From IMG/VR virus record IMGVR_UViG_3300010262_000007: a stretch of 37,945 nt of DNA; one strand, 5' to 3'. This stretch comes from a virus. The notes under the pieces are model-generated. The model was not told the origin of the DNA. It ran no database searches and was given only the letters and a program-made list of their open reading frames with translations. Positions 6,360 to 37,945 of this stretch are shown here, one piece after another (position 1 is the stretch's first letter; each line of letters opens with the position of its first letter). The translations under genes were made by a program, and so were the position numbers.

Positions 6360-6961
6360 GCGCCACAAACCGAGGCTGCGAGCGCAAGGCCTATGACTTC
6401 TATGCCACCCCGCCGGAAACCGTCCGGGCCTTCCTGGCCAACTTCGACGGCATCAGCTCCGGCGACCGCATCCTGGAGCCTTCTGCCGGCAACGGCCAGA
6501 TCGTCAAAGTGCTGAGGGAAGGCGGATATGACAACCGGATCGACGCCGTGGAGCTGCGACCGGAGGAGCGGGGCACCCTGGAAGCTCTGGCTGACAACGT
6601 CACAATCGGCAGCTTCTTCGACTACGAGCCCGACTGCGGCTACGATGTCGTCATAGGCAACCCGCCCTACAGTCTGGCCCTGGACTTCATCAATAAGAGC
6701 CTGGAGCTGCTGCACCCTGGCGGCCTGCTGATCTTCCTGCTCCGGACGAACTTCCTGGAGAGCGAGAAGCGCTTCAAGTGGTGGCAGGAGCACCCGCTCA
6801 GCGGTCTCTACACCCTGCACAAGCGCCCCAGCTTCACCGGCCGAGGCACCGACGCCACCAGCTACTCCTGGTTTGTGTGGGAGCGGGGGGACCGGCTGCA
6901 TAGGTCATCAGACCATCAAAACCATCTAAGGAGGACAAGCGCATGGAAGACATTGACCTGA
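6356..6961 (+). CDS. N6-adenine-type DNA methyltransferase (NPPY class); C-terminus possibly frameshifted
   Basis: Motif I ILEPSAGNG and motif IV VIGNPPYS. The last ~25 aa (RLHRSSDHQNHLRRTSAWKTLT) look out of frame after a G6 run at 6885..6890. Confidence 0.8.
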   Translation: MSATNRGCERKAYDFYATPPETVRAFLANFDGISSGDRILEPSAGNGQIVKVLREGGYDNRIDAVELRPEERGTLEALADNVTIGSFFDYEPDCGYDVVIGNPPYSLALDFINKSLELLHPGGLLIFLLRTNFLESEKRFKWWQEHPLSGLYTLHKRPSFTGRGTDATSYSWFVWERGDRLHRSSDHQNHLRRTSAWKTLT

Positions 6962-7147: not shown

Positions 7148-7588
7148 ATGAAGATCACCGTCGAATTTGCAAACCTGAACGAGTTCAAGCAGTACATGGG
7201 CGTCGAGTCCCCGAACCTGCTCGCCCAGGCATCCAAGGAAACAGAGGACGCTCCTGCACCCGCTGAGGCCGTCCAGGAGCCCCAGAAAGCACCGGAGGAC
7301 CCTGCCCCTAAGAAGAACACCAAGAAGGTCGAAAAGACCGCCCCTGCGGAAGCTGAGCCCTCTCCTGAGTCTGCTGACGAGGCTGCACCCGCTGCGCCCG
7401 CAGAAGTGACCGAGGACTTCCGCATCACCGTCCGCAAGCAGCTCGCGGCCCTCAACAAGAAGCGCGGCTACAACCGTGCGGCGGAACTCATCAACGAGCA
7501 GACCGGCAAGGGCAAGCTCACCGAAGTCGCACTTGCCGACCTGCCGAAGCTCATGGAAGCAGCAAAGGAGGAAACCAATGCCGACTAA
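7148..7588 (+). CDS. Hypothetical protein with Pro/Ala/Glu-rich low-complexity centre
   Basis: 146-aa ORF. RBS AAGGAGGA upstream. Confidence 0.55.
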   Translation: MKITVEFANLNEFKQYMGVESPNLLAQASKETEDAPAPAEAVQEPQKAPEDPAPKKNTKKVEKTAPAEAEPSPESADEAAPAAPAEVTEDFRITVRKQLAALNKKRGYNRAAELINEQTGKGKLTEVALADLPKLMEAAKEETNAD

Positions 7589-8756
7589 GCACGCCCGCTG
7601 CTCCGCATCGGCCGCATACCGCTGGATCAACTGCCCCGGATCCGTCGCCCTGTCTGATCAGTGTCCGGATCCCGGCTCCAGCAGCTACGCCGACGAGGGA
7701 ACAGTCGCCCACAGCCTGGCCGAGCTGAAGCTCCGCCACGTCCTGCATGAGATCACCGACGCCCAGTACAAGAAGCGCCTGGCCAAGATCCAGCAGGACG
7801 ACTACTACAACGGCGAGATGGACGAGGCCACCGACTTCTATGTCGAGACCGTCCTGGAGGAGTTCGCCGCAGCCGGCGAAGGCGCCGAGCTGATGATCGA
7901 GCAGCGCCTCGATCTTTCCCAATGGATCCCGGAAGGCTTCGGCACTTCCGACGCCGTGATCATCGGCGGCAGCATGATCCAGGTCATCGACCTGAAGTAC
8001 GGCAAAGGTATCAAGGTCGAGGCCAAGAACAACCCCCAGTTCCGCCTCTACGGCCTGGGCGCCGTCTCTCTGTTCGGCGATCTCTACGACTTCGACACCG
8101 TGAAGACCACCGTCGTCCAGCCCCGCCTCGATCACGTTGACAGCGAGGTCGTCATCCTGAAGGAGCTGCTGCTCTGGGGCGAGGAGGAAGTCGCGCCCCG
8201 CGCCATCATGGCCATGGAAGGCTCCGACTACTTTGTGGCCGGCGACTGGTGCCGCTTCTGCCCGGCGAAGGCTCGCTGCCGCAAGCGAGCCGAGTTCAAC
8301 CTGGATCTGGCCCGGATGGAGTTCCAGAAGCCCCCACTGCTCTCCAGCGAGGAGATCGGCGAAGTGCTGGCCAAGGCCGAGCACCTGAAGAAGTGGGCCG
8401 AGGAGGTCAGTGCCTACGCTCTGGAGCAGGCCCTGGCCGGTGAGCACTACGACGGCTGGAAGCTGGTCGAAGGCCGCAGCAACCGCAAGTACGCAGACGA
8501 GATCCAGGTGGCCGACAAGCTGAAGGCTGCCGGCTTCGACGAGGCAATGCTCTACCAGCGCAAGCTCTACGGCATCACCGAGATGGAGAAGCTCGTCGGC
8601 AAGAAGAAGCTGGCCGCCACTCTGGGCGACCTGCTGATCAAACCCGCAGGCAAGCCGGTCCTCGTGCCGGAGTCTGATAAACGCGAAGCCATCAACACAA
8701 CCGAAGCGGCTCAGGCCGACTTCACCACCGGCGACGACGAGGTCGCGCCGTTCTAA
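7578..8756 (+). CDS. PD-(D/E)XK nuclease, DUF2800 family (Cas4-like Cys cluster)
   Basis: Starts MPTKHARCSASAAYRWINCPGS (typical DUF2800 N-terminus). Contains IDLKYGKG and C-terminal CRFCPAKARC. ATG at 7578 follows AAAGGAGGA. Confidence 0.8.
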   Translation: MPTKHARCSASAAYRWINCPGSVALSDQCPDPGSSSYADEGTVAHSLAELKLRHVLHEITDAQYKKRLAKIQQDDYYNGEMDEATDFYVETVLEEFAAAGEGAELMIEQRLDLSQWIPEGFGTSDAVIIGGSMIQVIDLKYGKGIKVEAKNNPQFRLYGLGAVSLFGDLYDFDTVKTTVVQPRLDHVDSEVVILKELLLWGEEEVAPRAIMAMEGSDYFVAGDWCRFCPAKARCRKRAEFNLDLARMEFQKPPLLSSEEIGEVLAKAEHLKKWAEEVSAYALEQALAGEHYDGWKLVEGRSNRKYADEIQVADKLKAAGFDEAMLYQRKLYGITEMEKLVGKKKLAATLGDLLIKPAGKPVLVPESDKREAINTTEAAQADFTTGDDEVAPF

Positions 8757-8774: not shown

Positions 8775-9323
8775 ATGTCTACTACCAAAGTTATCACCGG
8801 AAAAGTTCGTTTCAGCTATGTGAACATCTTCAAGAGCCGTGCCTTCCAGGCTGGCCAGGACGCCAAGTACAGCGTGTGCCTGCTGATCCCTAAAGAGGAC
8901 AAGGCCACCATCAAGAAGATCAAGGCAGCCATCGACGCAGCTGTCCAGGACGGCATCAGCTCCAAGTGGGGCGGCAAGAAGCCCGCCAACCTGAAGCAGC
9001 CTCTGCGCGACGGCGACGCCGAGCGTGCCGATGAGGCTCCTGAGTACGAGGGTATGTACTTCCTCAACTGCAACAGCACCCAGAAGCCCGGCATCGTGGA
9101 CAAAGATCTGAACGAGATCCTGGATCTCGACGAGGTCTACTCCGGCTGCTGGGGCCGCGCCTCCATCAACTTCTTCCCCTTCAACACCAACGGCAACAAG
9201 GGTGTCGGCGTCGGCCTGAATAACATCCAGAAGCTGAAGGACGACGACCGCCTGGGCGCTGCCCGTGCTTCTGCCAAGTCCGACTTCGGCGGCGACGACT
9301 TCGAGGACGACGAGGACTTCTAA
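8775..9323 (+). CDS. DUF2815-family single-stranded DNA-binding-like protein
   Basis: Starts TGKVRFSYVNIF. Acidic tail DDFEDDEDF. Sits in the conserved DUF2800-DUF2815-PolA gene order. Confidence 0.75.
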   Translation: MSTTKVITGKVRFSYVNIFKSRAFQAGQDAKYSVCLLIPKEDKATIKKIKAAIDAAVQDGISSKWGGKKPANLKQPLRDGDAERADEAPEYEGMYFLNCNSTQKPGIVDKDLNEILDLDEVYSGCWGRASINFFPFNTNGNKGVGVGLNNIQKLKDDDRLGAARASAKSDFGGDDFEDDEDF

Positions 9324-11323: not shown

Positions 11324-11881
11324 ATGAAAATTAACCGCACCATGACCATCGAAACCAACGAGATCCAGATCGGCGACCGCATCCAGGTCGGCCACTATAC
11401 CGCCACCTGCCAGGCTCTGCCTGGCGAAGGCCTGGCTCTTTTCCTTCTGGACCAGTATCTCGACAAGGCCATGCAGATGAACGAGAAGAACACCAACAAG
11501 GGCGGCTACCAGGAGAGCGATCTCCGCGAGGAGCTCAACAGCGAGAAGATTCTGAAGGACTTCACTGGTCTGGAGCTGGCGCCCTTCGACAACGGCGATC
11601 TGCTCCGTCTGCCGTTCTACGGCGAGATGTTCGGGCACGATGACTGGTACAACTCCGGCGCCGTGGAGCCTGACGACTGCGAGCAGTGGCCTCTGATGAA
11701 GGAACGCGCCAATCGCGTCGCCGAACGCAAGGGCGAAAGCTACGAGTGGGGATGGCTCCAGAACAAGTACGTCCAGTCGGCGACGGATTTCTGCGGTGTC
11801 GGCGACGACGGTTATGCCTACGCCTGGAACGCCTCGAACTCCATCGGCGTCCGCCCGGCTTTCCTGATCAAATTATCGTAA
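11324..11881 (+). CDS. DGR target protein 1: small non-structural protein with C-terminal CLec-type variable region
   Basis: C-terminus ...WLQNKYVQSATDFCGVGDDGYAYAWNASNSIGVRPAFLIKLS parallels the fibre target. Its last ~94 nt are a near-copy of 35576..35669 and 36292..36390. Confidence 0.8.
   Translation: MKINRTMTIETNEIQIGDRIQVGHYTATCQALPGEGLALFLLDQYLDKAMQMNEKNTNKGGYQESDLREELNSEKILKDFTGLELAPFDNGDLLRLPFYGEMFGHDDWYNSGAVEPDDCEQWPLMKERANRVAERKGESYEWGWLQNKYVQSATDFCGVGDDGYAYAWNASNSIGVRPAFLIKLS
11770..11863 (+). repeat. DGR variable region VR1
   Basis: In the 89-nt core (of 94 nt) it differs from VR2 at 15 positions, all at codon position 1 or 2. Shares the GC-rich 3' block TCGGCGTCCGCCCGG. Confidence 0.8.
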
Positions 11882-11885
11882 ATCC

Positions 11886-11904
11886 CGGGGGCCTCGTGCC
11901 CCCG
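11886..11904 (+). promoter_or_regulatory. GC hairpin downstream of VR1 (DGR target-recognition hairpin/cruciform candidate)
   Basis: Stem CGGGGGC / GCCCCCG with loop CTCGT, about 22 nt after the VR homology ends. Same loop and spacing as 35690..35710. Confidence 0.65.
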
Positions 11905-11936
11905 ACATAAACCATCTACAAGCAAGGAGGACAGCG

Positions 11937-24081: not shown

Positions 24082-24172
24082 GCGCCGCGAGACGCTTTTA
24101 TTATGAGCAGACGCCGGGCTCTGAGCCGGCGGGAATGTTCACGACACATTACAAAAACGGAGGAATGACCCA

Positions 24173-24793
24173 ATGAAAAAGTATTTTAACCTTCAGCTCT
24201 TTGACAACGGCGGCGAGGGCGGCTCTGGCGGAGGCCAGGGTGGAAACGCTGGGGACGGCAACGGCAGCCAGGGAAATGCCGGGAATAATGGAGGCACCGG
24301 AGGCTACAGCTTCCAGCAGGCCGAGGAGATCGCCCAGGCTCGTGCAGAACGCGCCGAGAAGGCCGCTCTCAGCTCCTACTTCAAGCAGCAGGGCATGAGC
24401 GAGGAGGAAATCAACCAGGCGATCAAGGACTTCAAGGCCAACCGAGAGAAGCAGCGCCCCAATGTGGACGCCATCACGAGAGAGCGCGATGACGCGCTCG
24501 CAGAACTGGCTCAGATAAAGAACAGCCAGACTCTCGCCCAGAAGGGCGTCCGCGCCGAGGACACTGACTACGTCATGTTCAAGATCGCGGCCCTGATGAA
24601 AGAGGACAGCAAGCTCGACTTCGAGAAGGCCGCCACCAAGTTCCTGAAAGAAAACCCCCGCTTTGCTACCAGCGGCAGCGGGTCATACCGCGTGAAGACC
24701 GGCACGGAAAGTTCCGGTGTGGGCAGCTCTGGAAACCAGAACAGCAACGACTTCATCAACGCCGCCATCCGCAGAAAAGCGGGCCGCAACTAA
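24173..24793 (+). CDS. Scaffolding protein with Prp-cleavable leader
   Basis: Leader MKKYFNLQLF, a Gly/Asn-rich linker, then helical EEIAQARAERAEKAALSSYFKQQG. Located before the capsid gene. Confidence 0.75.
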   Translation: MKKYFNLQLFDNGGEGGSGGGQGGNAGDGNGSQGNAGNNGGTGGYSFQQAEEIAQARAERAEKAALSSYFKQQGMSEEEINQAIKDFKANREKQRPNVDAITRERDDALAELAQIKNSQTLAQKGVRAEDTDYVMFKIAALMKEDSKLDFEKAATKFLKENPRFATSGSGSYRVKTGTESSGVGSSGNQNSNDFINAAIRRKAGRN

Positions 24794-24816
24794 CAAAATT
24801 ATGGAGGAATAACCAC

Positions 24817-25788
24817 ATGAAAAAGTATTTTAATCTTCAGCTTTTTGAGATCGACGCCCAGATCATTGACAGATCTGGCGCCGAGTCTCTGATCCCCGAG
24901 GACCGTGCTGCGGAAATCATCCAGGGCGCCATCGCTCAGTCCGCTGTCCTCTCCATGGGCCGCCGTCTGGCCAATATGACTGCAGCCCAGACCCGTCTCC
25001 CTGTTCTGGATGCTCTGCCTATCGCCTACTTCGTGAACGGCGACACCGGTCAGAAGAAGACCACCAGACAGGCATGGGACAAGAAGACCATCATCGCCGA
25101 GGAGATCGCGGTCATCGTTCCCATCCCCGAGGCAGTTCTGGACGACGCTGACTACGACATCTGGGGCGAGGTCCGTCCTCGTATCCAGGAGGCTTTTGGC
25201 CAGGTCATCGACGCCGCCATCCTGTTCGGCACTGACAAGCCTGCAACCTGGCGTGAGGGTCTGGTGCCTTCCGCTACTACTGCCGGCGCGGTGAAGCAGA
25301 TCTCTGCTGATCTTTACACTGACCTGCTCGGCGAGGGCGGCATCATCTCCAAGGTGGAGGAGTCCGGCTACTTCGTGTCCGGCCATGTGGCCGACATCGG
25401 TATGCGTGCTAAGCTGCGCGGCCTGAAGGATGGCAACGAGCGTCCTCTGTTCCTGAACTCCATGCAGCAGGCTGGCAACTATACCCTGGACGGCTCCGCC
25501 ATCCAGTTCCCTCGCAATGGCGCCTTCGACAAGACCAAGGCCCACATGATCTCCGGCGACTTCTCTCAGCTGGTGTACTCCATCCGCCAGGACATCACCT
25601 TCAAGCTGTTCACTGAGGGCGTCGTACAGAACACTGACGGCACCATCGCCTACAACCTGATGCAGAACGACATGGTGGCCCTTCGCGCTGTCATGCGTCT
25701 GGGCTGGGAGATCCCGAACCCTGTCAACGCCATGGCCAAGGAAAAGGCGAAGCGCTTCCCGTTCGCTGTGCTGACCCCTGCCGGCTAA
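24817..25788 (+). CDS. Major capsid protein with Prp-cleavable leader
   Basis: 323 aa. Leader MKKYFNLQLFE. Position after the scaffold gene, strong RBS GGAGGAA. Confidence 0.8.
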   Translation: MKKYFNLQLFEIDAQIIDRSGAESLIPEDRAAEIIQGAIAQSAVLSMGRRLANMTAAQTRLPVLDALPIAYFVNGDTGQKKTTRQAWDKKTIIAEEIAVIVPIPEAVLDDADYDIWGEVRPRIQEAFGQVIDAAILFGTDKPATWREGLVPSATTAGAVKQISADLYTDLLGEGGIISKVEESGYFVSGHVADIGMRAKLRGLKDGNERPLFLNSMQQAGNYTLDGSAIQFPRNGAFDKTKAHMISGDFSQLVYSIRQDITFKLFTEGVVQNTDGTIAYNLMQNDMVALRAVMRLGWEIPNPVNAMAKEKAKRFPFAVLTPAG

Positions 25789-29180: not shown

Positions 29181-31689
29181 TACAAGCCTGGACACTGGCG
29201 GCCTACAGTCCGGCATGGGCAAGGTCGCGAGCGTCGCTCAGCAGGCGCTGGGCGTATTCACCGGCCAGATGATGACCAGAGCAGTTGATGCTCTGGCCAA
29301 TCTCGGCAAGTCAGCTCTCGACAGTGTGGGGCAACTGGAGCAGAACGTCGGAGGCGTGGAGACGCTCTTCGGCGATGCAGCTGACGCGGTCATCGCGTCG
29401 GCAGATCGGGCCTACCAGACGGCGGGCATGTCTGCCAATGACTACATGAGCACGGTCACGAGCTTCTCGGCGTCCCTGCTCCAGTCCCTCGGCGGAAATA
29501 CCGAGGAAGCGGCCAAAGTGGCCGACATGGCCATCATCGACATGGCCGACAACGCGAACAAGATGGGGACGTCCATGGACATGATCCAGAACGCCTACCA
29601 GGGCTTCGCGAAACAAAATTACACGATGCTGGACAACCTGAAGCTCGGCTACGGCGGCACCAAGACCGAGATGGAGCGCCTCCTGGCTGATGCTGAAAAG
29701 CTGACCGGCGTCAAGTATGACATTAACAATTTGAACGACGTCTACCAGGCGATCCACGCGGTCCAGGAGGAAATGGGGATCACCGGCACCACGGCCAAAG
29801 AGGCCGCGAGTACGCTGGAGGGCTCCATGGCTTCGGCCAAGGCCGCCTGGGACAACTTCATGAACGGCTCCGGCGACGCGGACCAGCTGGCGGACGCCTT
29901 CGCCACGGCAGCGGACAATATCGTCAAGAACCTCGCCGAGATCATTCCGCGCTTCGCTGAGACGCTTCCAGCGCTCGGCAGCGCCATTATTGTGCAGATC
30001 CCGGGTCTGGTGGCTGCCATCGTTCCGGCCGTGCTCTCAGCAGGCCAGAGCGTTCTGAAGCAGCTCCAGGACGCGGTCCTGAACTTCGACTTCGCCGGAA
30101 CAGCTGACAAGGTCGTCCAGATGATCACGGGCTTCATCGAAGGCGACGGACTGGGCTCTCTCCTGGACACTCTTGCCACAATTTTCACCGGCATCGTGAA
30201 TGGCATCAGCTCCATGCTGCCGTCGCTTCTGCCTGCGCTGATCGAGCTGATCAGCTACGTTGTGACCTCACTCCTGGACCAGCTGCCCGCAATCCTCGAC
30301 TGCGCGCTGGAGCTGATCCTCGGTCTGGCTCAGGGCATCCTTGCGGCGCTTCCTGTACTGATCGAAGCACTGCCGGAGGTCATCAGCTCCATCGTGGAGT
30401 TCCTGATCTCGGCCATCCCGCAAATCATTGACGCCGGCATCGAGCTCCTGATGGCACTGGTGGACGCCCTGCCTGTCATCATCGACGCGCTGGTGGACGC
30501 CCTGCCTCAGATCATCAAGGCCACCGTGACGGCTCTGATCGCCGCAGCACCCCAGATCGCGAAGGCTGGCATCAAGCTCCTGGGGGCCCTGATCGAAGCC
30601 ATCCCAGTCATCGTGGTCGAGCTGGCGAAGGCCGTGCCGGACATCGTCGCGGCCATCATCGACGTGCTGGCCGAGCTTCCCGGTCTGATCGGCGAAGTCT
30701 TCGCCGAGATCGTGACGGACCTCGTCGAGTGGGGCCAGCAGATGCTCAGCAATGCCTCCACGGCCATGAGCAATATGCTCAGCCAGGTCAACAGCATCAT
30801 CCAGGAACTCCCTGGCAAGATCTGGACGCACCTGGTCAATGCGGTGAACAAGGTCATCGCCTGGGGCCAGCAGATGCTCAGCAATGCTTCGACCGCCATG
30901 AGCAATATGCTCAGCAAGGTCAGCGGCATCATCCAGGAGCTACCCGGAAAGATCTGGACGCACCTGGTCAACACCGTCAATAAAGTGGTGGCCTGGGGCC
31001 AGCAGATGGTCTCCAACGCTTCGACCGCAGCGAGCAATATGCTCAGCAAGGTCTCCAGCACGCTCCAGCAGCTCCCGGGCAAGGTCTGGGACTATCTGAG
31101 CCAGGCGGCCCAGAAGGTCGTCACCTGGGGCACACAGCTGGCCCAGAAGGGCGCCGCAGCGGCGACCCAGCTGTTCAACTCCATCGTCAACGGGCTCAGC
31201 AGCCTGCCGAGCAAGATGGCGGAGATCGGCAGCAACATCGTCAGCGGCATCTGGAACGGCATCAGCTCTGGCTGGAACTGGCTGACGAACAAGGTCAGCA
31301 ACCTGGCCAACAGGCTGCTGAACGCCGCGAAAGACGCCCTCGGCATCAACTCCCCGTCCAAAGAGTTCGCGGACGAGGTCGGCCGCTGGATCATGCCCGG
31401 CGTGGGCAAGGGCCTGGACAAGTCCATGCCTGCAACGCTGAAGGACATGAGGGCCAAGGCCGGCGAGCTCGTCAGTGCCATGCGGGCCGAGATGTCGGCA
31501 AGCGCCGGGCAGCTAACCGTCGGAGCTTCGCACGCTGCGGGGCTGAGAATGGCGGGCGCCGGCACTACCGTCTACAATGATAATCGCATGGAGCAGAGCA
31601 ACACCTACAACGTGCCTGTGGCTACTCCTTCCGAGGTGGCCAAGAAGCAGCGCGAGGCTCTGCGGAACATGGTCGGAGGTGTGAAATGA
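29152..31689 (+). CDS. Tape measure protein
   Basis: 845 aa, helical Ala/Leu/Ile-rich, with internal 44-aa tandem repeats. Located after the chaperones. Confidence 0.9.
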   Translation: MASDGTLKFDTSLDTGGLQSGMGKVASVAQQALGVFTGQMMTRAVDALANLGKSALDSVGQLEQNVGGVETLFGDAADAVIASADRAYQTAGMSANDYMSTVTSFSASLLQSLGGNTEEAAKVADMAIIDMADNANKMGTSMDMIQNAYQGFAKQNYTMLDNLKLGYGGTKTEMERLLADAEKLTGVKYDINNLNDVYQAIHAVQEEMGITGTTAKEAASTLEGSMASAKAAWDNFMNGSGDADQLADAFATAADNIVKNLAEIIPRFAETLPALGSAIIVQIPGLVAAIVPAVLSAGQSVLKQLQDAVLNFDFAGTADKVVQMITGFIEGDGLGSLLDTLATIFTGIVNGISSMLPSLLPALIELISYVVTSLLDQLPAILDCALELILGLAQGILAALPVLIEALPEVISSIVEFLISAIPQIIDAGIELLMALVDALPVIIDALVDALPQIIKATVTALIAAAPQIAKAGIKLLGALIEAIPVIVVELAKAVPDIVAAIIDVLAELPGLIGEVFAEIVTDLVEWGQQMLSNASTAMSNMLSQVNSIIQELPGKIWTHLVNAVNKVIAWGQQMLSNASTAMSNMLSKVSGIIQELPGKIWTHLVNTVNKVVAWGQQMVSNASTAASNMLSKVSSTLQQLPGKVWDYLSQAAQKVVTWGTQLAQKGAAAATQLFNSIVNGLSSLPSKMAEIGSNIVSGIWNGISSGWNWLTNKVSNLANRLLNAAKDALGINSPSKEFADEVGRWIMPGVGKGLDKSMPATLKDMRAKAGELVSAMRAEMSASAGQLTVGASHAAGLRMAGAGTTVYNDNRMEQSNTYNVPVATPSEVAKKQREALRNMVGGVK
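30730..31257 (+). repeat. 132-bp (44-aa) tandem repeats in the tape measure gene: three close copies plus a degenerate fourth
   Basis: TGGGGCCAGCAGATG recurs at 30730, 30862 and 30994. A divergent unit (TGGGGCACACAGCTG) starts at 31126. Confidence 0.85.
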
Positions 31690-34709: not shown

Positions 34710-35681
34710 ATGCAGATTGACGTAACAAACGGCAAACGCTTCACAGAGTACGACGCGCTGGCTGCCGTAGCCAGCGAGGAGGACGTTCTCCTGGTACGAC
34801 TCGCAGACGGCGCAGGCGTCAAGAGGATCCCTATCAGCGCCATCAAGGCCTTCATCAATGGAGACCTGGACACGCTGGAGACTGAGGACAAGACCAGCCT
34901 GATCGCCGCCATCAACGAAGTCTTCGGCCTGGTAGGCACCAATGCCCAAGACATCAAAGCCCTGAAGGAGCTGACCACAATGCTCGGCCAGACTGGGGCA
35001 TCCAGGGCCAACTCCTTCATCTATGAGCACGACCTCGGCACCAGCTTCACCGCTGAGCAGTCCGCCGACATCCGTGCCGGCAAGTTTGAGAAGGTCCGCA
35101 CTGGCGGCTACTGGACCATCAACGGCCACAAATACTGGGCCGCCCATGCTAACTACCGTCTGCACTGCGGCGACACCGAGCTGACCACCCACCATATGCT
35201 GGTCATCCCCGACAAGCCCTTCTATAACGGCGTGATGAATGACACTAACGTCACGACCGGCTCCTACTACGGCAGCAAGATGAAGACCTCCGGCCTGGCC
35301 AACGCTCTGGCCACTGTCAAGGCTGACTTCGGCGCAGACCACATCCTGACTCACAGGATCCTCCTGGCCAACGCTGTCAGCAATGGCGCCAGCTCCGGCT
35401 GGGCATGGTACGACAGCCAGATCGACCTGATGAACGAGCACATGGTCTACGGCTCCTACGCATGGGGCGGCGGAGCGCAGAACGGCTACGACGTCGGGGC
35501 AGACAAGAGCCAGCTGGCTCTGTTCCAGGCACGCCCGGATCTGATCACGAACAGAGAGAACTGGTGGCTGAGAGACGTCCGGTCGGCGTCGCATTTCTGC
35601 AGTGTCAGCGGCAGCGGTGGTGCCAACGACGGGAACGCCTCGTACTCCTTCGGCGTCCGCCCGGCTTTCCTGATCTATTGA
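34710..35681 (+). CDS. DGR target protein 2: receptor-binding tail fibre with C-terminal CLec-type variable region (Mtd analogue)
   Basis: C-terminus ...NRENWWLRDVRSASHFCSVSGSGGANDGNASYSFGVRPAFLIY. Its last ~94 nt are repeated in the TR-like segment and in VR1. Confidence 0.85.
   Translation: MQIDVTNGKRFTEYDALAAVASEEDVLLVRLADGAGVKRIPISAIKAFINGDLDTLETEDKTSLIAAINEVFGLVGTNAQDIKALKELTTMLGQTGASRANSFIYEHDLGTSFTAEQSADIRAGKFEKVRTGGYWTINGHKYWAAHANYRLHCGDTELTTHHMLVIPDKPFYNGVMNDTNVTTGSYYGSKMKTSGLANALATVKADFGADHILTHRILLANAVSNGASSGWAWYDSQIDLMNEHMVYGSYAWGGGAQNGYDVGADKSQLALFQARPDLITNRENWWLRDVRSASHFCSVSGSGGANDGNASYSFGVRPAFLIY
35576..35669 (+). repeat. DGR variable region VR2
   Basis: 94 nt, aligned to VR1 and to 36292..36390. 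Ends in the GC-rich block TCGGCGTCCGCCCGG (IMH-like). Confidence 0.8.
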
Positions 35682-35689
35682 TCAAAAAT

Positions 35690-35710
35690 CCCGGCCCCTC
35701 GTGGGCCGGG
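35690..35710 (+). promoter_or_regulatory. GC hairpin downstream of VR2 (DGR target-recognition hairpin candidate)
   Basis: Stem CCCGGCCC / GGGCCGGG with loop CTCGT, about 20 nt after the VR homology ends. Confidence 0.65.
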
Positions 35711-35737: not shown

Positions 35738-36265
35738 GTGTCAGACATCCCCAAAAGTAAAAGAGCATATTCCAACCTGGAAGCGCACCACAAGGCGCTG
35801 GAGATCCGCAGGAAGATCGCGGTGGAGCTCCTGGCCGGCTTCGCCTACAGCGAGAAAAAGCTGGAGGAAGCCGTCCGGAAGCAGACGCAACACATCCAGG
35901 ACCCTGAGCATAGGGCGGAGGCCGCCCAGGCCATCCGCAACCTGGAGGAAGACTTCGCCTGCTGGTTTATCAAGCGCCACCGCGACCGGGTGGACGACCT
36001 CTGCTGCGACATCGCGCAGCATCTCAGAGGCGCCAATACCATCTGGCCGACCTACCACTTCGAGTATAAGGACAGGCGCGGTGAGCTAAACCAGGCGCTG
36101 AAGTGCTGCAACAAGCTCCAGGACGAGCTCCAGTACATCGCCGAGTCGCTGCCGGCAGACAAGAACAAGTATATGGACATCGTGCTGGAAGTCGAGGCCC
36201 TGTTCAACATGATCAAGGCACTGCGGCAGTCTGACAACCGTCTCCTGAAGCATCTGAAAGACTAA
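35738..36265 (+). CDS. avd: Accessory variability determinant (Avd-like helical-bundle protein)
   Basis: GTG start after AAGGAG. 175 aa, all-helical and basic. Occupies the canonical slot between VR and TR. Longer than typical Avd proteins. Confidence 0.6.
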   Translation: MSDIPKSKRAYSNLEAHHKALEIRRKIAVELLAGFAYSEKKLEEAVRKQTQHIQDPEHRAEAAQAIRNLEEDFACWFIKRHRDRVDDLCCDIAQHLRGANTIWPTYHFEYKDRRGELNQALKCCNKLQDELQYIAESLPADKNKYMDIVLEVEALFNMIKALRQSDNRLLKHLKD

Positions 36266-36291
36266 GAATATAGGGTGTCCTCTGTACGGGC

Positions 36292-36390
36292 CGTCCGGTC
36301 GGCGGCGGGTTTCTGCGGGGTCGTCTGCGCCGGGGGGGGGGGCCGGCGCCTGGGCCGGCCTCGCCCTCCCTCGGCGTCCGCCCGGATTTC
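36292..36390 (+). repeat. DGR template-repeat-like segment (non-coding, adenine-free, 5 nt longer than the VRs)
   Basis: Shares CGTCCGGTCGGCG...TTTCTGC...TCGGCGTCCGCCCGG with both VRs. No A between 36287 and 36385. Lies between avd and the RT gene. Confidence 0.7.
36332..36342 (+). repeat. Homopolymeric G11 tract inside the TR-like segment
   Basis: Counted directly: gcgcc-ggggggggggg-ccggcg. Confidence 0.95.
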
Positions 36391-36502
36391 ACAACTGCAC
36401 AAAGTCATCGGGCAAGTTCCCGCGTGCAGCAATGGGAAAGGAGAGGCCATCCTTCCAGCGGAAGCTGGTAAATGCTAACCAGGACGCTCCCGGTCACGAC
36501 CG

Positions 36503-37828
36503 ATGGGGCTATCGCGTGGTTTTTATATGACTGTATATTTTGATGCTAATAACATTTATGACGCCGGGACCAAGGCGATGCAAAGCAGCAAGTTCAAACA
36601 CGGCACCCAGCTGTTCGAGATGAACCACCTGCTGACCACTGCCCACATCCGGCAGGACTTTATCACCGGCGACTACAAGCCGGATCCGGGCAACAAGTTC
36701 CCGATCAATGAGCGCGGGCATCCGCGCTACATAACCAGTAACACGATGGTGGACAAGACGGTCAACCATCTGCTCTGCGACGAGGTGCTGACGCCGTCCA
36801 TCAGCAAGTACCTGATCTATGACAACGGCGCCTCACAGAAGGGCAAGGGTGTGGCTTTCCATCGTCGCCGCTTCGAGGCTCGACTGCATCAGTATTTCAT
36901 GCAAAACGGCACCAACGAGGGATACATCCTCCTGGTGGACTTCTCCGGCTATTATGCCAACATCCCGCACGACAAGTGCCTGGAGGTGCTCCAGACGTTC
37001 CTGGAGCGCGAAGTCGAAGATCCGGAGACGCTGGCCATCACTGAGATGCTGCTGCCGCTCATCTTCAAGACCTTCGAGCAGGACGTCTCTCGTTTCACTG
37101 ACAAGGAGATCGAGGCGATGATGGCCGGAAAAATCGACCCGATGCTGAACTACGGCGTGGATCCAGCGCTCCTGACCGGCGAGAAAATGCTCCGGAAGGG
37201 TGTGGACATCGGCTCCCAGCCTTCGCAGAACATCGGCATCGTCTACCCCTACCGGCTGGACAATTATGCCAAGATCGTCAAGGCGGTCAAAGGATACGGC
37301 CGTTATACCGATGACTCCTACGCAATCGCCCGGACCCGGGAGGAGCTGCTGGAACTTCTGGACGGTCTGGAGAAGGAGGCGAAAGAGTATGGGCTGATAA
37401 TTAACCGCAAGAAAACCAGGATCGTGAAATTGTCCTCAGAGTTCCGGCACCTGCAGGTGTGCTACTCCTTAACAGAGACCGGCAGAATTATCCGGAAGAT
37501 CAACCCGAAGAACATCACAAGGGAGCGGCGCAAGCTGAAGGCCTACAAGCGCCTGCTCGATAGCGGCCGCATCGACTACGCGACGGTCGAGAACGCCTTC
37601 AAGTCCTGGCTGGGAAGTCACTGGAAGTATATGTCGCATGATCAAGTTTATAACATGAGCAGCCTCTACTATGAGCTGTTCGGAAGGAGACCAAAATGGA
37701 AAAAAGGACATGGAAGATTACACTGGCTGATGGCACATCCCTCGACGGCCTCGACCTCAACGGGAACAACTACATCAGCTCCGCCGCCGTCGCCGAGGCC
37801 ACCTTCGCCGGTAAGCTCTCCAGCGTGA
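36503..37828 (+). CDS. DGR-type reverse transcriptase
   Basis: LLVDFSGYYANIPH, IGSQPSQ (the [LIV]GxxxSQ DGR signature), GRYTDDSYAIA (YxDD) and NRKKTRIV. The start is uncertain (ATG at 36503 or 36527, neither with a clear RBS). The last ~44 codons overlap the next gene. Confidence 0.85.
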   Translation: MGLSRGFYMTVYFDANNIYDAGTKAMQSSKFKHGTQLFEMNHLLTTAHIRQDFITGDYKPDPGNKFPINERGHPRYITSNTMVDKTVNHLLCDEVLTPSISKYLIYDNGASQKGKGVAFHRRRFEARLHQYFMQNGTNEGYILLVDFSGYYANIPHDKCLEVLQTFLEREVEDPETLAITEMLLPLIFKTFEQDVSRFTDKEIEAMMAGKIDPMLNYGVDPALLTGEKMLRKGVDIGSQPSQNIGIVYPYRLDNYAKIVKAVKGYGRYTDDSYAIARTREELLELLDGLEKEAKEYGLIINRKKTRIVKLSSEFRHLQVCYSLTETGRIIRKINPKNITRERRKLKAYKRLLDSGRIDYATVENAFKSWLGSHWKYMSHDQVYNMSSLYYELFGRRPKWKKGHGRLHWLMAHPSTASTSTGTTTSAPPPSPRPPSPVSSPA

Positions 37829-37945
37829 CCATCGAGGGGCCTGACGGCACCCAGACCTATCAGGACATGAAGCTGGTCCAGATCAGCAAGGTCGGCAAGA
37901 GTTACTGGTTTATCCTGGCCGAGAAGACGGCTGAGGAAAAGCAGA
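37696..37945 (+). CDS. Hypothetical phage protein, N-terminal part of the wrap-around gene (continues at 124..224)
   Basis: ATG at 37696 is preceded by GGAAGGAGA (37682..37690). The frame is open to the window end and identical to 3..123 across the repeat. Confidence 0.6.
   Translation, partial: MEKRTWKITLADGTSLDGLDLNGNNYISSAAVAEATFAGKLSSVTIEGPDGTQTYQDMKLVQISKVGKSYWFILAEKTAEEKQ
37823..37945. repeat. Direct terminal repeat, right copy
   Basis: Identical to 1..123. Confidence 0.95.

Follow-up and report, generated by a model that had tools for sequence, protein, structure and literature searches.

An adenine-free template repeat in the DGR of a gut phage, probably rewritten by its own mutagenised cDNA

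The template repeat (TR) in the DGR of a siphovirus-like gut phage contains not one adenine in 99 nt (36287-36385, + strand), and it is orthologous to the A-rich TR of its relatives. This segment is probably the genuine TR of a canonical phage DGR that has been rewritten by its own adenine-mutagenised cDNA. The case starts from direct observations, which are the orthology of the segment, its ancestral state, the A-specificity and the spectrum of its changes, the agreement between assemblies and the unchanged flanks. The DNA analysed, referred to below as the window, is the whole 37,945-nt stretch of the IMG/VR record IMGVR_UViG_3300010262_000007.

The adenine-free template repeat

The absence of A from 36287 to 36385 had been the central claim of a first-pass annotation made from the letters alone, and it was borne out over the whole 99 nt. 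At the window A frequency of 23.5%, the probability that a given 99-nt stretch has no A is 3e-12, and the next longest A-free run in the window measures 29 nt. The nearest outward A's, at 36286 and 36386, are untouched. The block that the TR has in common with the VRs corresponds to 36292-36385 and the converted tract to 36290-36370; an A at 36290, 2 nt upstream of the VR-homologous block, was likewise replaced. Measured between their shared ends, the TR has 94 nt versus 89 nt in the VRs, the extra bases being four G in a homopolymer of 11 G (36332-36342, + strand) and one near 36357. According to the alignment with relatives, this homopolymer stands where the ancestral letters were GGTAATG, and it contains four of the five inserted bases as well as two of the three T>G changes of the TR, which are located at 36319, 36334 and 36337.

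The counts of the first-pass annotation were reproduced exactly. The two VRs, VR1 and VR2, are unlike at 15 of their 89 positions; each of these differences falls on a first or second codon position, and at 12 of the 15 one VR of the pair has A. The statement that the TR has G or C at these variable sites holds for 14 of them and fails for the 15th, where the TR of the window and those of the relatives alike have T. Every codon comparison that had been offered holds (GAT/CAT against GGT, AAC in both VRs against GCC, AAC/TAC against CCC), and the 3′ block said to be identical in TR and VRs, TCGGCGTCCGCCCGG, is found at exactly three places, in VR1, VR2 and the TR.

Organization of the phage genome and its DGR

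The end of the window (37823-37945) has the same letters as positions 1-123, a terminal overlap of the assembly, and the genome unit is a circle of 37,822 bp (~37.8 kb) that encodes a serine integrase, lysis genes, a replication module and tail genes. Such a circular assembly suggests that the phage was replicating in the sample. The core of the DGR lies at the end of the tail module, in the order target gene 2 with VR2, an ORF in the avd position, TR, spacer and RT. Target gene 2 (34710-35681, + strand; 323 aa) adjoins the tail genes and shows, from Pfam and its translation, a DUF6273 C-terminus; its VR2 (35576-35664, + strand) is followed on the 3′ side by a GC-rich hairpin with a perfect 8-bp stem (35690-35710, + strand). 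The second target, 24 kb away from the core, is target gene 1 (11324-11881, + strand; 185 aa, DUF6273 in Pfam), which sits within the replication module and carries VR1 (11770-11858, + strand). On the 3′ side of VR1 there is an imperfect inverted repeat with arms of 18 nt (11875-11892 and 11898-11915) that are 72% complementary, and its GC-rich core (CCCGGGGGC / GCCCCCG) can be placed at 11884-11906 (+ strand), these core limits being a reading of the reported repeat. Both VRs end DUF6273-containing ORFs, and the ancestral TR encodes an N-rich ...NFCNVNNNGNANNWNASNS... stretch.

The ORF in the avd position (35738-36265, + strand; 175 aa, GTG start) is assigned by its place and is conserved among relatives, with a single window-private non-synonymous change, F169L at 36242. 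It gave no Pfam, NCBIfam or PDB sequence match, and an AF2 single-sequence model of low confidence (pLDDT 54) predicts an all-helical protein. The spacer between TR and RT (36386-36526, + strand; 141 nt), regarded as the Sp-like part of the DGR RNA, has zero window-private differences, and in the TR-region alignment its portion up to 36432 is the same in nearly all relatives; a search of Rfam returned nothing relevant and no match for the spacer. The DGR-type RT (36527-37828, + strand; 441 aa, Pfam RVT_1) is intact. Its sole PDB match, a weak one (E = 4e-4), is 8ub7_A, a 328-aa 'Reverse transcriptase' which we take to be the Bordetella phage bRT, and the alignment brings together IGSQPSQ with IGSLTSQ and RYTDD with RYMDD, corresponding to the IGSxxSQ and YxDD motifs.

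The TR and the VRs share a 15-nt GC block, after which the VRs continue with CTTTCCTGATC and the TR with ATTTCACAAC. An inverted-repeat search 3′ of the TR found no GC-rich hairpin or inverted repeat, unlike the situation at both VRs. As judged from these letters, a putative IMH/IMH* asymmetry is present together with the hairpin that would mark the VRs as recipients.

The phage also encodes an exonuclease (7476-8756, + strand; phrog_69, E 1e-137, with faint to weak PDDEXK_1/DUF2800 matches in Pfam) and a Gp2.5-like ssDNA-binding and annealing protein (8775-9323, + strand; phrog_112, E 6e-73; PF10991 Enc34_ssDNA-bd). Both genes, whose roles come from annotation, provide a context for the recombination route proposed below.

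Ancestral state of the template repeat

Related contigs offer a direct view of what the TR was like before the loss of its adenines. About 50 of them were examined, and all but one have the same A-rich TR, made of AAC/AAT codons and reading GGACCGTCCAGTCGGCGACGAATTTCTGCAATGTCAACAACAACGGTAATGCCAACAACTGGAACGCCTCGAACTCCATCGGCG... at the orthologous place, just as the first-pass annotation had deduced from the footprint left in the VRs. At the 15 columns that vary between VR1 and VR2, where A in orthologues had been put forward as a check, the TR of the relatives has A at 14. The nearest named genome, Acutalibacter phage Fontainebleau, a phage of Acutalibacter muris, shows the same gene order and an A-rich TR in the same place, which means that the TR adenines are conserved down to 69% nucleotide identity. 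IMG/VR holds 25 relatives by RT, 13 of them with 96-100% protein identity, and wherever their avd-RT interval is readable, the TR is canonical (GGACCGTCCAGTCGGCGACGAATTTCTGCAATGTCAACAACAACGGTAATGCCAACAACTGGAACGCCTCGAACTCCATCGGCGTCCGCCCGG) or departs from it by a single base. Among the 22 readable relatives from IMG/VR and the phage database, the canonical TR is present in 19 IMG/VR contigs and in Fontainebleau, and a single-base variant in L002, L006 and L014. Metagenome contigs that share the 24 nt directly upstream of the TR have exactly the canonical TR in 17 of 18 cases. Moreover, the 441-aa RT of the window is 100% identical to the RTs of relatives having canonical TR/VR pairs, and the identical protein occurs in 927 blocks of an assembly collection; among the matches listed, the canonical TR was present in 10 of 10 contigs with the identical RT. 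These identical-RT contigs reach 608 kb and are therefore prophages in bacterial chromosomes. A DGR that mutagenises G or C was also considered, as it would account for TR/VR mismatches located at TR G and C, and was rejected, given that A stands at those columns in relatives whose RT is identical.

In the flanks of the TR (target gene, ORF in the avd position, spacer and RT), the closest relatives reach 99.5-99.7% identity with the window, and both the 24 nt upstream and the downstream Sp are the same as in the relatives with a canonical TR. When the ancestral TR is taken as the reference, VR1 has 11 mismatches, all 11 at A, and 13 of the 14 mismatches in VR2 likewise fall at A. Compared with the present TR of the window, VR1 shows 19 mismatches and VR2 21, none of them at a TR A. 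Mismatches at TR adenines, the operational sign of a DGR, are thus found with the ancestral TR and missing with the present one, and the locus is a DGR by descent but no longer by that criterion. Since the ancestral TR seen in relatives fits both VR1 and VR2, the AAY-rich ancestor proposed by the first-pass annotation is correct, and the A-free state is, from sequence comparison, a recent derivative of an orthologous TR, private to the lineage of the window. In this regard, an exact 25-nt pattern of the A-free allele had 0 matches in IMG/VR and 0 in GTDB genomes, and the allele is limited to one sample. When the host genome was sought with the upstream anchor, a genome contig collection gave 0 matches.

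Mutation pattern in the converted tract

The changes accumulated in the converted tract (36290-36370) follow a strict base preference. All 24 ancestral A's have been replaced, 16 by G, 6 by C and 2 by T, and 3 of 13 ancestral T's have changed, always to G and beside A's that turned into G; the 24 ancestral C's and the 15 ancestral G's are all intact. In addition, the tract has gained 4-5 G, four of which lie in the run now standing in place of GGTAATG. With A set against non-A, Fisher's test on the changed bases gives 8e-17. A 27-sequence alignment of 3.68 kb contains 41 window-private differences, 25 of which are concentrated within 36290-36365, and the remaining 16 consist of 15 ordinary transitions and one A>T inside VR2.

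The VRs of the relatives provide a reference for the outcome of DGR mutagenesis. In 40 distinct VRs, which vary at the TR-A columns and reveal that diversification is ongoing in the phage family, A is kept at 41% of these columns, and the non-A bases are 54% G, 27% C and 19% T. The replacements in the TR do not differ from this spectrum (chi-square p = 0.34). Between 9 and 20 of 23 A's are changed per event in these VRs, the most changed one reaching 20 of 23, and a T>G beside AA>GG (AAT>GGG) also occurs in one of them, the VR of L035. Such a one-strand bias, with A affected more than T, is a hallmark of DGR mutagenesis, and the pattern of the tract is unlike sequencing error, ordinary drift or the action of a deaminase, which gives A>G only; adenosine deamination was in fact rejected, since 6 of the A's became C and 2 became T. 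The view of the TR as a recipient of A-mutagenesis, advanced by the first-pass annotation, is well supported by the change of 24/24 A's and 0/39 G's or C's with a VR-like spectrum, and what is observed are A-specific substitutions within the TR context, as TR self-mutagenesis would produce. The donor of the new letters can also be narrowed down: the A at 36290 lies outside the homology with the VRs and was nevertheless replaced, which indicates that the donor carried TR-specific sequence, as a TR cDNA does and a VR does not. A repeat-induced chimera of TR and VR was discarded for the same reason, together with the fact that the replaced bases are found in neither VR.

A self-mutagenesis ratchet

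From these data, we infer a cDNA donor, several rounds of replacement and a contribution of an annealing protein, in a mechanism that would proceed as follows. The TR RNA would be reverse-transcribed with misincorporation opposite A, and the resulting cDNA would occasionally anneal or recombine with the DNA of the TR rather than with a VR, the TR being its best-matching partner. This step would take a homology-dependent route, not the one based on IMH and hairpin, and the phage exonuclease and the Gp2.5-like annealing protein may help in it. About 60% of the remaining A's would be removed per event, and a lost A could never be mutagenised again, so that a few rounds (about 3-6) would leave no A in what is a one-way ratchet. 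The new G runs would then favour the T>G changes and the insertions of G. With 41% retention, the probability that all 24 A's are lost is 3e-6 in one round and rises to 0.17, 0.49 and 0.75 for 3, 4 and 5 rounds; the notion of an A-free TR as an absorbing state, contained in the first-pass annotation, is consistent with several such rounds, four of which give a probability of about one half.

The first-pass annotation had presented this self-homing as one of three explanations and had linked it to a 3′ end of the TR resembling an IMH. The part concerning a recipient TR and an absorbing state fits the data, but not the proposed cause. The identity of the 3′ blocks of TR and VR cannot have turned the TR into a target, as the same GC block exists in all relatives with an intact TR, and beyond this block the sequences ATTTCACAAC of the TR and CTTTCCTGATC of the VRs differ exactly as they do in the relatives. 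Something similar is known for BPP-1, where a (GC)14 element is present in both TR and VR and the next 21 bp (the IMH) set the direction of transfer (PMC3240598; PMC5758913). Identity of the 3′ block is then the normal state of both the DGR of the window and that of BPP-1, and not a cause of self-targeting. Swaps of IMH* to IMH in BPP-1 reportedly make the TR a recipient. A derived IMH-like change in the TR 3′ flank of the window was considered and rejected, because this flank is identical to that of the relatives and the TR is without the hairpin of the VRs. With an unchanged flank and no VR hairpin, canonical IMH-dependent homing is not indicated, and a homology-driven route is favoured.

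Some observations weigh against the ratchet. One of them is that all relatives share the recombination genes and yet keep their TR; no cis or trans change accounting for self-targeting was found in the lineage of the window, where F169L of the avd-position ORF stands as the sole candidate. Another is that several TR-directed events are required without any rewriting of VR1 and VR2 between them. The VRs of the window match the A-free TR at only 6-7 of 23 ancestral-A sites (6 in VR2), within the background range of 2-11 obtained with unrelated VRs, and they were therefore not rewritten while the TR eroded. For the VRs to have stayed as they were, the TR must have been strongly preferred, or homing into the VRs must have been selected against once the TR was out of frame. 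With a TR longer by 4 or 5 nt, homing would wreck the ...GVRPAF C-terminus that is conserved in the target, and selection would remove the product; for the time before the loss of register, an unexplained preference for the TR is needed, the alternative being a single extreme event.

Such an event would have consisted of one hypermutagenised cDNA in which every template A was misread, for instance during a dTTP shortage or an error-prone pass, and which replaced the TR only once. It spares the several TR-directed events without VR rewriting, it is in line with individual VRs that reach 20 of 23 changed A's in one event, and the assemblies of the sample contain no intermediate state. We consider it unlikely, although the best placed of the alternatives, on account of the value of ~3e-6 for 24/24 in one pass at the mean A retention of 0.41. 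Moreover, the T>G changes and the G insertions sit in G runs that exist only after A>G, which is easier to reach with successive passes, even though L035 shows AAT>GGG to be possible in one pass.

Authenticity of the sequence

The first-pass annotation had raised a consensus or assembly artefact as a further explanation, under which the genome would really have a canonical TR. Outside the window, just two contig sets carry its VR2-bearing protein, and the same two are the only ones with its holin and with its endolysin: ENA ERZ27241761 (MEGAHIT k141, a 37,962-bp circle) and Logan SRR5190358 (k = 31). The three assemblies all come from one sample, with SRR5190358 as the only run identified, and the comparison is made at the level of assemblies. 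In the MEGAHIT contig the A-free TR is the same except for the run, which is G10 and not G11. In Logan, the genome is split at the G run: one contig ends in ...GCGCCGGGGGGGGGG and the other begins with TCTGCGGGGTCGTCTGCGCCGGGGGGGGGGCCGGCGCC... and carries the A-free 3′ half, the two overlapping by 30 nt (k-1) in a graph that branches at the G run. Accordingly, the same 24 replacements stand on both sides of the G run, in their genomic context, in all three assemblies, and only the length of the homopolymer is unstable (G11 in the window versus G10 in the ENA and Logan assemblies), which makes the number of indels, and hence the frameshift, uncertain; the reading frame would be preserved by G9 or G12 and lost with G10 or G11.

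That the whole evidence comes from one sample, that the length of the G run varies between assemblies with a Logan contig ending in it, and that this locus is a frequent site of breaks or mis-joins in the contigs of relatives (L003, L004 and L005) would all suit an artefact. The agreement of three assemblers renders it improbable at the assembly level, the same 24 replacements having been recovered with k = 31, with k = 141 and with a third assembler that left the 123-nt terminal overlap, each time joined to unique flanks. Errors at the level of reads would have to show strand and base specificity within 81 nt, striking all A's while sparing G and C, on a single strand and with a DGR-like spectrum, in surroundings of 3.6 kb where only ordinary transition differences are seen. 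A repeat-induced chimera offers no way out either, the replaced bases being absent from VR1, VR2 and the canonical TR. Overall, we regard an artefact as quite improbable, somewhat more so than a single extreme event.

Slightly less probable still is an inert relic, either with a canonical TR (and RT) supplied in trans by a co-resident prophage or with its A's removed by something other than the DGR (a deaminase, or gene conversion from a VR): it could be argued from the frequency of the identical RT (the 927 blocks of a very common phage family, by which a second copy is conceivable) and from the intact VR ends and hairpins, but the circular genome has no second TR, deamination does not give the A>C and A>T changes, 0 of 40 VRs are A-free, the VRs of the window do not match the states of the TR, and the A at 36290 falls outside the VR homology. 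For the related suggestion that this copy is a decayed target whose real TR has been lost, the data are equally adverse, as the copy is orthologous with identical flanks and the 37.8-kb circle holds no second TR. The search for another A-rich copy in the genome returned only three copies of the repeat ends, the canonical core was unmatched at up to 3 mismatches, and no further repeat family was found.

A second, partial case

Erosion of a TR by its own cDNA is hinted at in one more contig, L033 (OLRV01014129.1), the TR of which has five A>N changes and one T>G (TGG>GGG), with one A>C in the spacer. At 5 of the 6 positions altered in this TR, the non-A one included, the VR2 of the contig agrees with it, and the 39 other VRs share at most 3. 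This coincidence means that information moved between the altered TR and its own VR. L033 may represent a partly eroded TR that still serves as a donor, a reading that is suggestive only in a short contig with many private transversions.

Consequences for the DGR and its host phage

The DGR of the window is best described as burnt out: the RT and the ORF in the avd position are intact, as are the two VRs that the old template wrote, but the TR is left with no mutable position, and in a TR without A there is nothing left to mutagenise, so that the system cannot diversify. The first-pass annotation had considered a frozen or dead DGR, which is a fair description. The tropism of the phage is best described as frozen at the current VR1 and VR2. 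Homing from the present TR would probably frameshift the targets, given that the TR is 4-5 nt out of register with the VRs; read in the VR register it gives AVRSAAGFCGVVCAGGGGRRLGRPRPP..., out of frame after the G run. The RNA made of TR plus spacer is predicted to fold with -124 kcal/mol versus -77 for the canonical one, in a model where the G run pairs with CCCUCCCUC; this stable G:C hairpin may hinder cDNA synthesis.

The function of DGRs needs a one-way flow of information in which the template is untouched, and the direction is thought to be enforced by the IMH, the IMH* and the hairpin of the target. If a natural template was erased specifically at its adenines while its flanks stayed the same, nature itself would provide evidence of a leak in this protection, and it would suggest that a homology-driven route operates in the wild, like the one that engineered combinations of DGR and recombineering exploit and suffer from. 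As a tentative generalization, to which we give slightly less than even confidence, natural DGR templates are exposed to their own mutagenic cDNA, and the invariance of the TR adenines is kept by purifying selection against the ratchet, not by a mechanistic immunity, with the genome of the window as the end state and L033 as an intermediate still donating to its VR. The conservation of TR adenines across highly diverged relatives is the pattern expected under selection. If true, burn-out would be a way in which phage DGRs fail in nature, or are switched off, and a class of silent DGRs missed by current detection pipelines is predicted. This very prevalent family of gut phages could then be used for measuring the rate of TR erosion.

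Comparison with known DGR systems

Canonical phage DGRs of the BPP-1 type and of the Fontainebleau group have the same layout as the window, with a target gene carrying a C-terminal VR, an accessory ORF, TR, spacer, RT and a remote second target. They likewise show a GC-rich block at the end of TR and VRs and a hairpin after each VR, and their VRs differ from the TR at A, as happens here when the ancestral TR is considered (11/11 in VR1 and 13/14 in VR2). Unlike in these systems, the TR of the window is A-free, is 4-5 nt longer than the VRs and has its mismatches at TR G, C and T, and as a consequence standard A-biased DGR finders would not call the locus. Natural DGRs with non-A substitutions and indels between TR and VRs have been described (Wu et al. 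2018, PMC5758913), but those cases are VR differences from an A-containing TR and not the loss of all A's from the TR. A literature search turned up no description of a TR that had lost, or was losing, its adenines in nature, and the run SRR5190358 gave no match there.

The closest parallels come from engineered systems. When a DGR was combined with recombineering, the TR itself became mutated, 'continuously erasing adenine from TR' (bioRxiv 10.64898/2026.07.21.739853), and the TR was also hit where DGR cDNA was integrated by a single-strand annealing protein (also 10.64898/2026.06.12.731847). In DGRec-type systems, built with bRT-Avd, CspRecT and a dominant-negative MutL in E. coli, the TR receives its own cDNA and progressively loses its adenines. 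Engineered self-mutagenesis of a TR placed 85.5% of the mutations at A and 10.9% at T (bioRxiv 10.1101/2025.03.24.644984), to be compared with 24 A and 3 T substitutions out of 27 in the window, that is, 11% at T. Integration in the recombineering systems relies on homology and not on an IMH, as proposed here for the phage of the window. In contrast to the engineered systems, this is a natural gut phage in which the flanks of the TR are unengineered, erosion is complete and the recombination functions are presumed to be the phage's own. By descent, the DGR of the window is an ordinary member of a very common family of gut-phage DGRs, and by analogy, in the one sample where it occurs and through the mechanism inferred above, it would have failed in the same way as TRs that mutagenise themselves in engineered systems.

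Template and variable repeats in related phages

The template repeat (TR) of the diversity-generating retroelement (DGR) is invariant among the related phages apart from rare variants. One of these is found in the contig L033 (OLRV01014129.1; 2266-2420), where the TR carries five A>N changes together with a TGG>GGG change and the adjoining spacer a single A>C. Five of the six changed TR states are also present in the second variable repeat (VR2) of the same contig, and at most three in any of the 39 other VRs. Erosion of the TR may have been caught here at an intermediate stage; L033 also has numerous private transversions and a 10-nt deletion. The remaining variants are single-base ones, the first (...CCATCAGCGTCC...) shared by the related contigs L002 and L006 and the second, AAC>AAT, occurring in L014; in one case the substitution adds an A directly ahead of the GC block.

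Among the VRs, non-A changes fall repeatedly at the same fixed spots, as seen at position 35631 of the window and in the VRs of L033 and of two other relatives (L001 and L035). TGG>GGG was observed in three of 40 VRs, and AAT>GGG, T>G included, in one (L035). Such recurrent changes suggest that the reverse transcriptase (RT) also makes errors at T residues adjoining mutated adenines.

Joins that skip the template repeat

In two samples, represented by the related contigs L003 (2880-2900) and L005 (IMG/VR 3300029767_000275 and 3300029414_000249), the end of the phage methyltransferase gene is fused directly to the spacer that precedes the RT, without any TR, which in window coordinates joins ~6863-6910 to ~36440. 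The methyltransferase side of the join is a G6-8 run, and another related contig, L004, starts within the spacer. The join could be genuine, as a deletion or mini-circle variant, or could instead come from a mis-assembly that recurs.

Second target gene and other coding regions

The second DGR target (11324-11881; 185 aa, DUF6273), which contains VR1, is part of the replication module, with the DNA polymerase on one side and the primase-helicase on the other. A distance of 24 kb separates it from the DGR core, and it is not one of the tail genes. An 845-aa tape-measure-like ORF includes three tandem 132-nt repeats (30722-31117), of which the second is 86% and the third 72% identical to the first. 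Two adjacent genes of the head/tail module start with a 59-nt stretch of 83% identity (24159-24217 and 24803-24861), comprising the ribosome-binding site and MKKYFNLQLF..., a similarity suggestive of tandem gene duplication.

The 3′ end of the RT ORF overlaps by ~130 nt (37697-37828) the next gene, whose start at 37697 is preceded by GGAAGGAG, and gene calls on the relatives' contigs give the same 441-aa RT product. The only non-synonymous change private to the window in the avd-position ORF is F169L (TTC>CTC, 36242), 45 nt upstream of the TR, at a phenylalanine kept as far as the Acutalibacter phage Fontainebleau.
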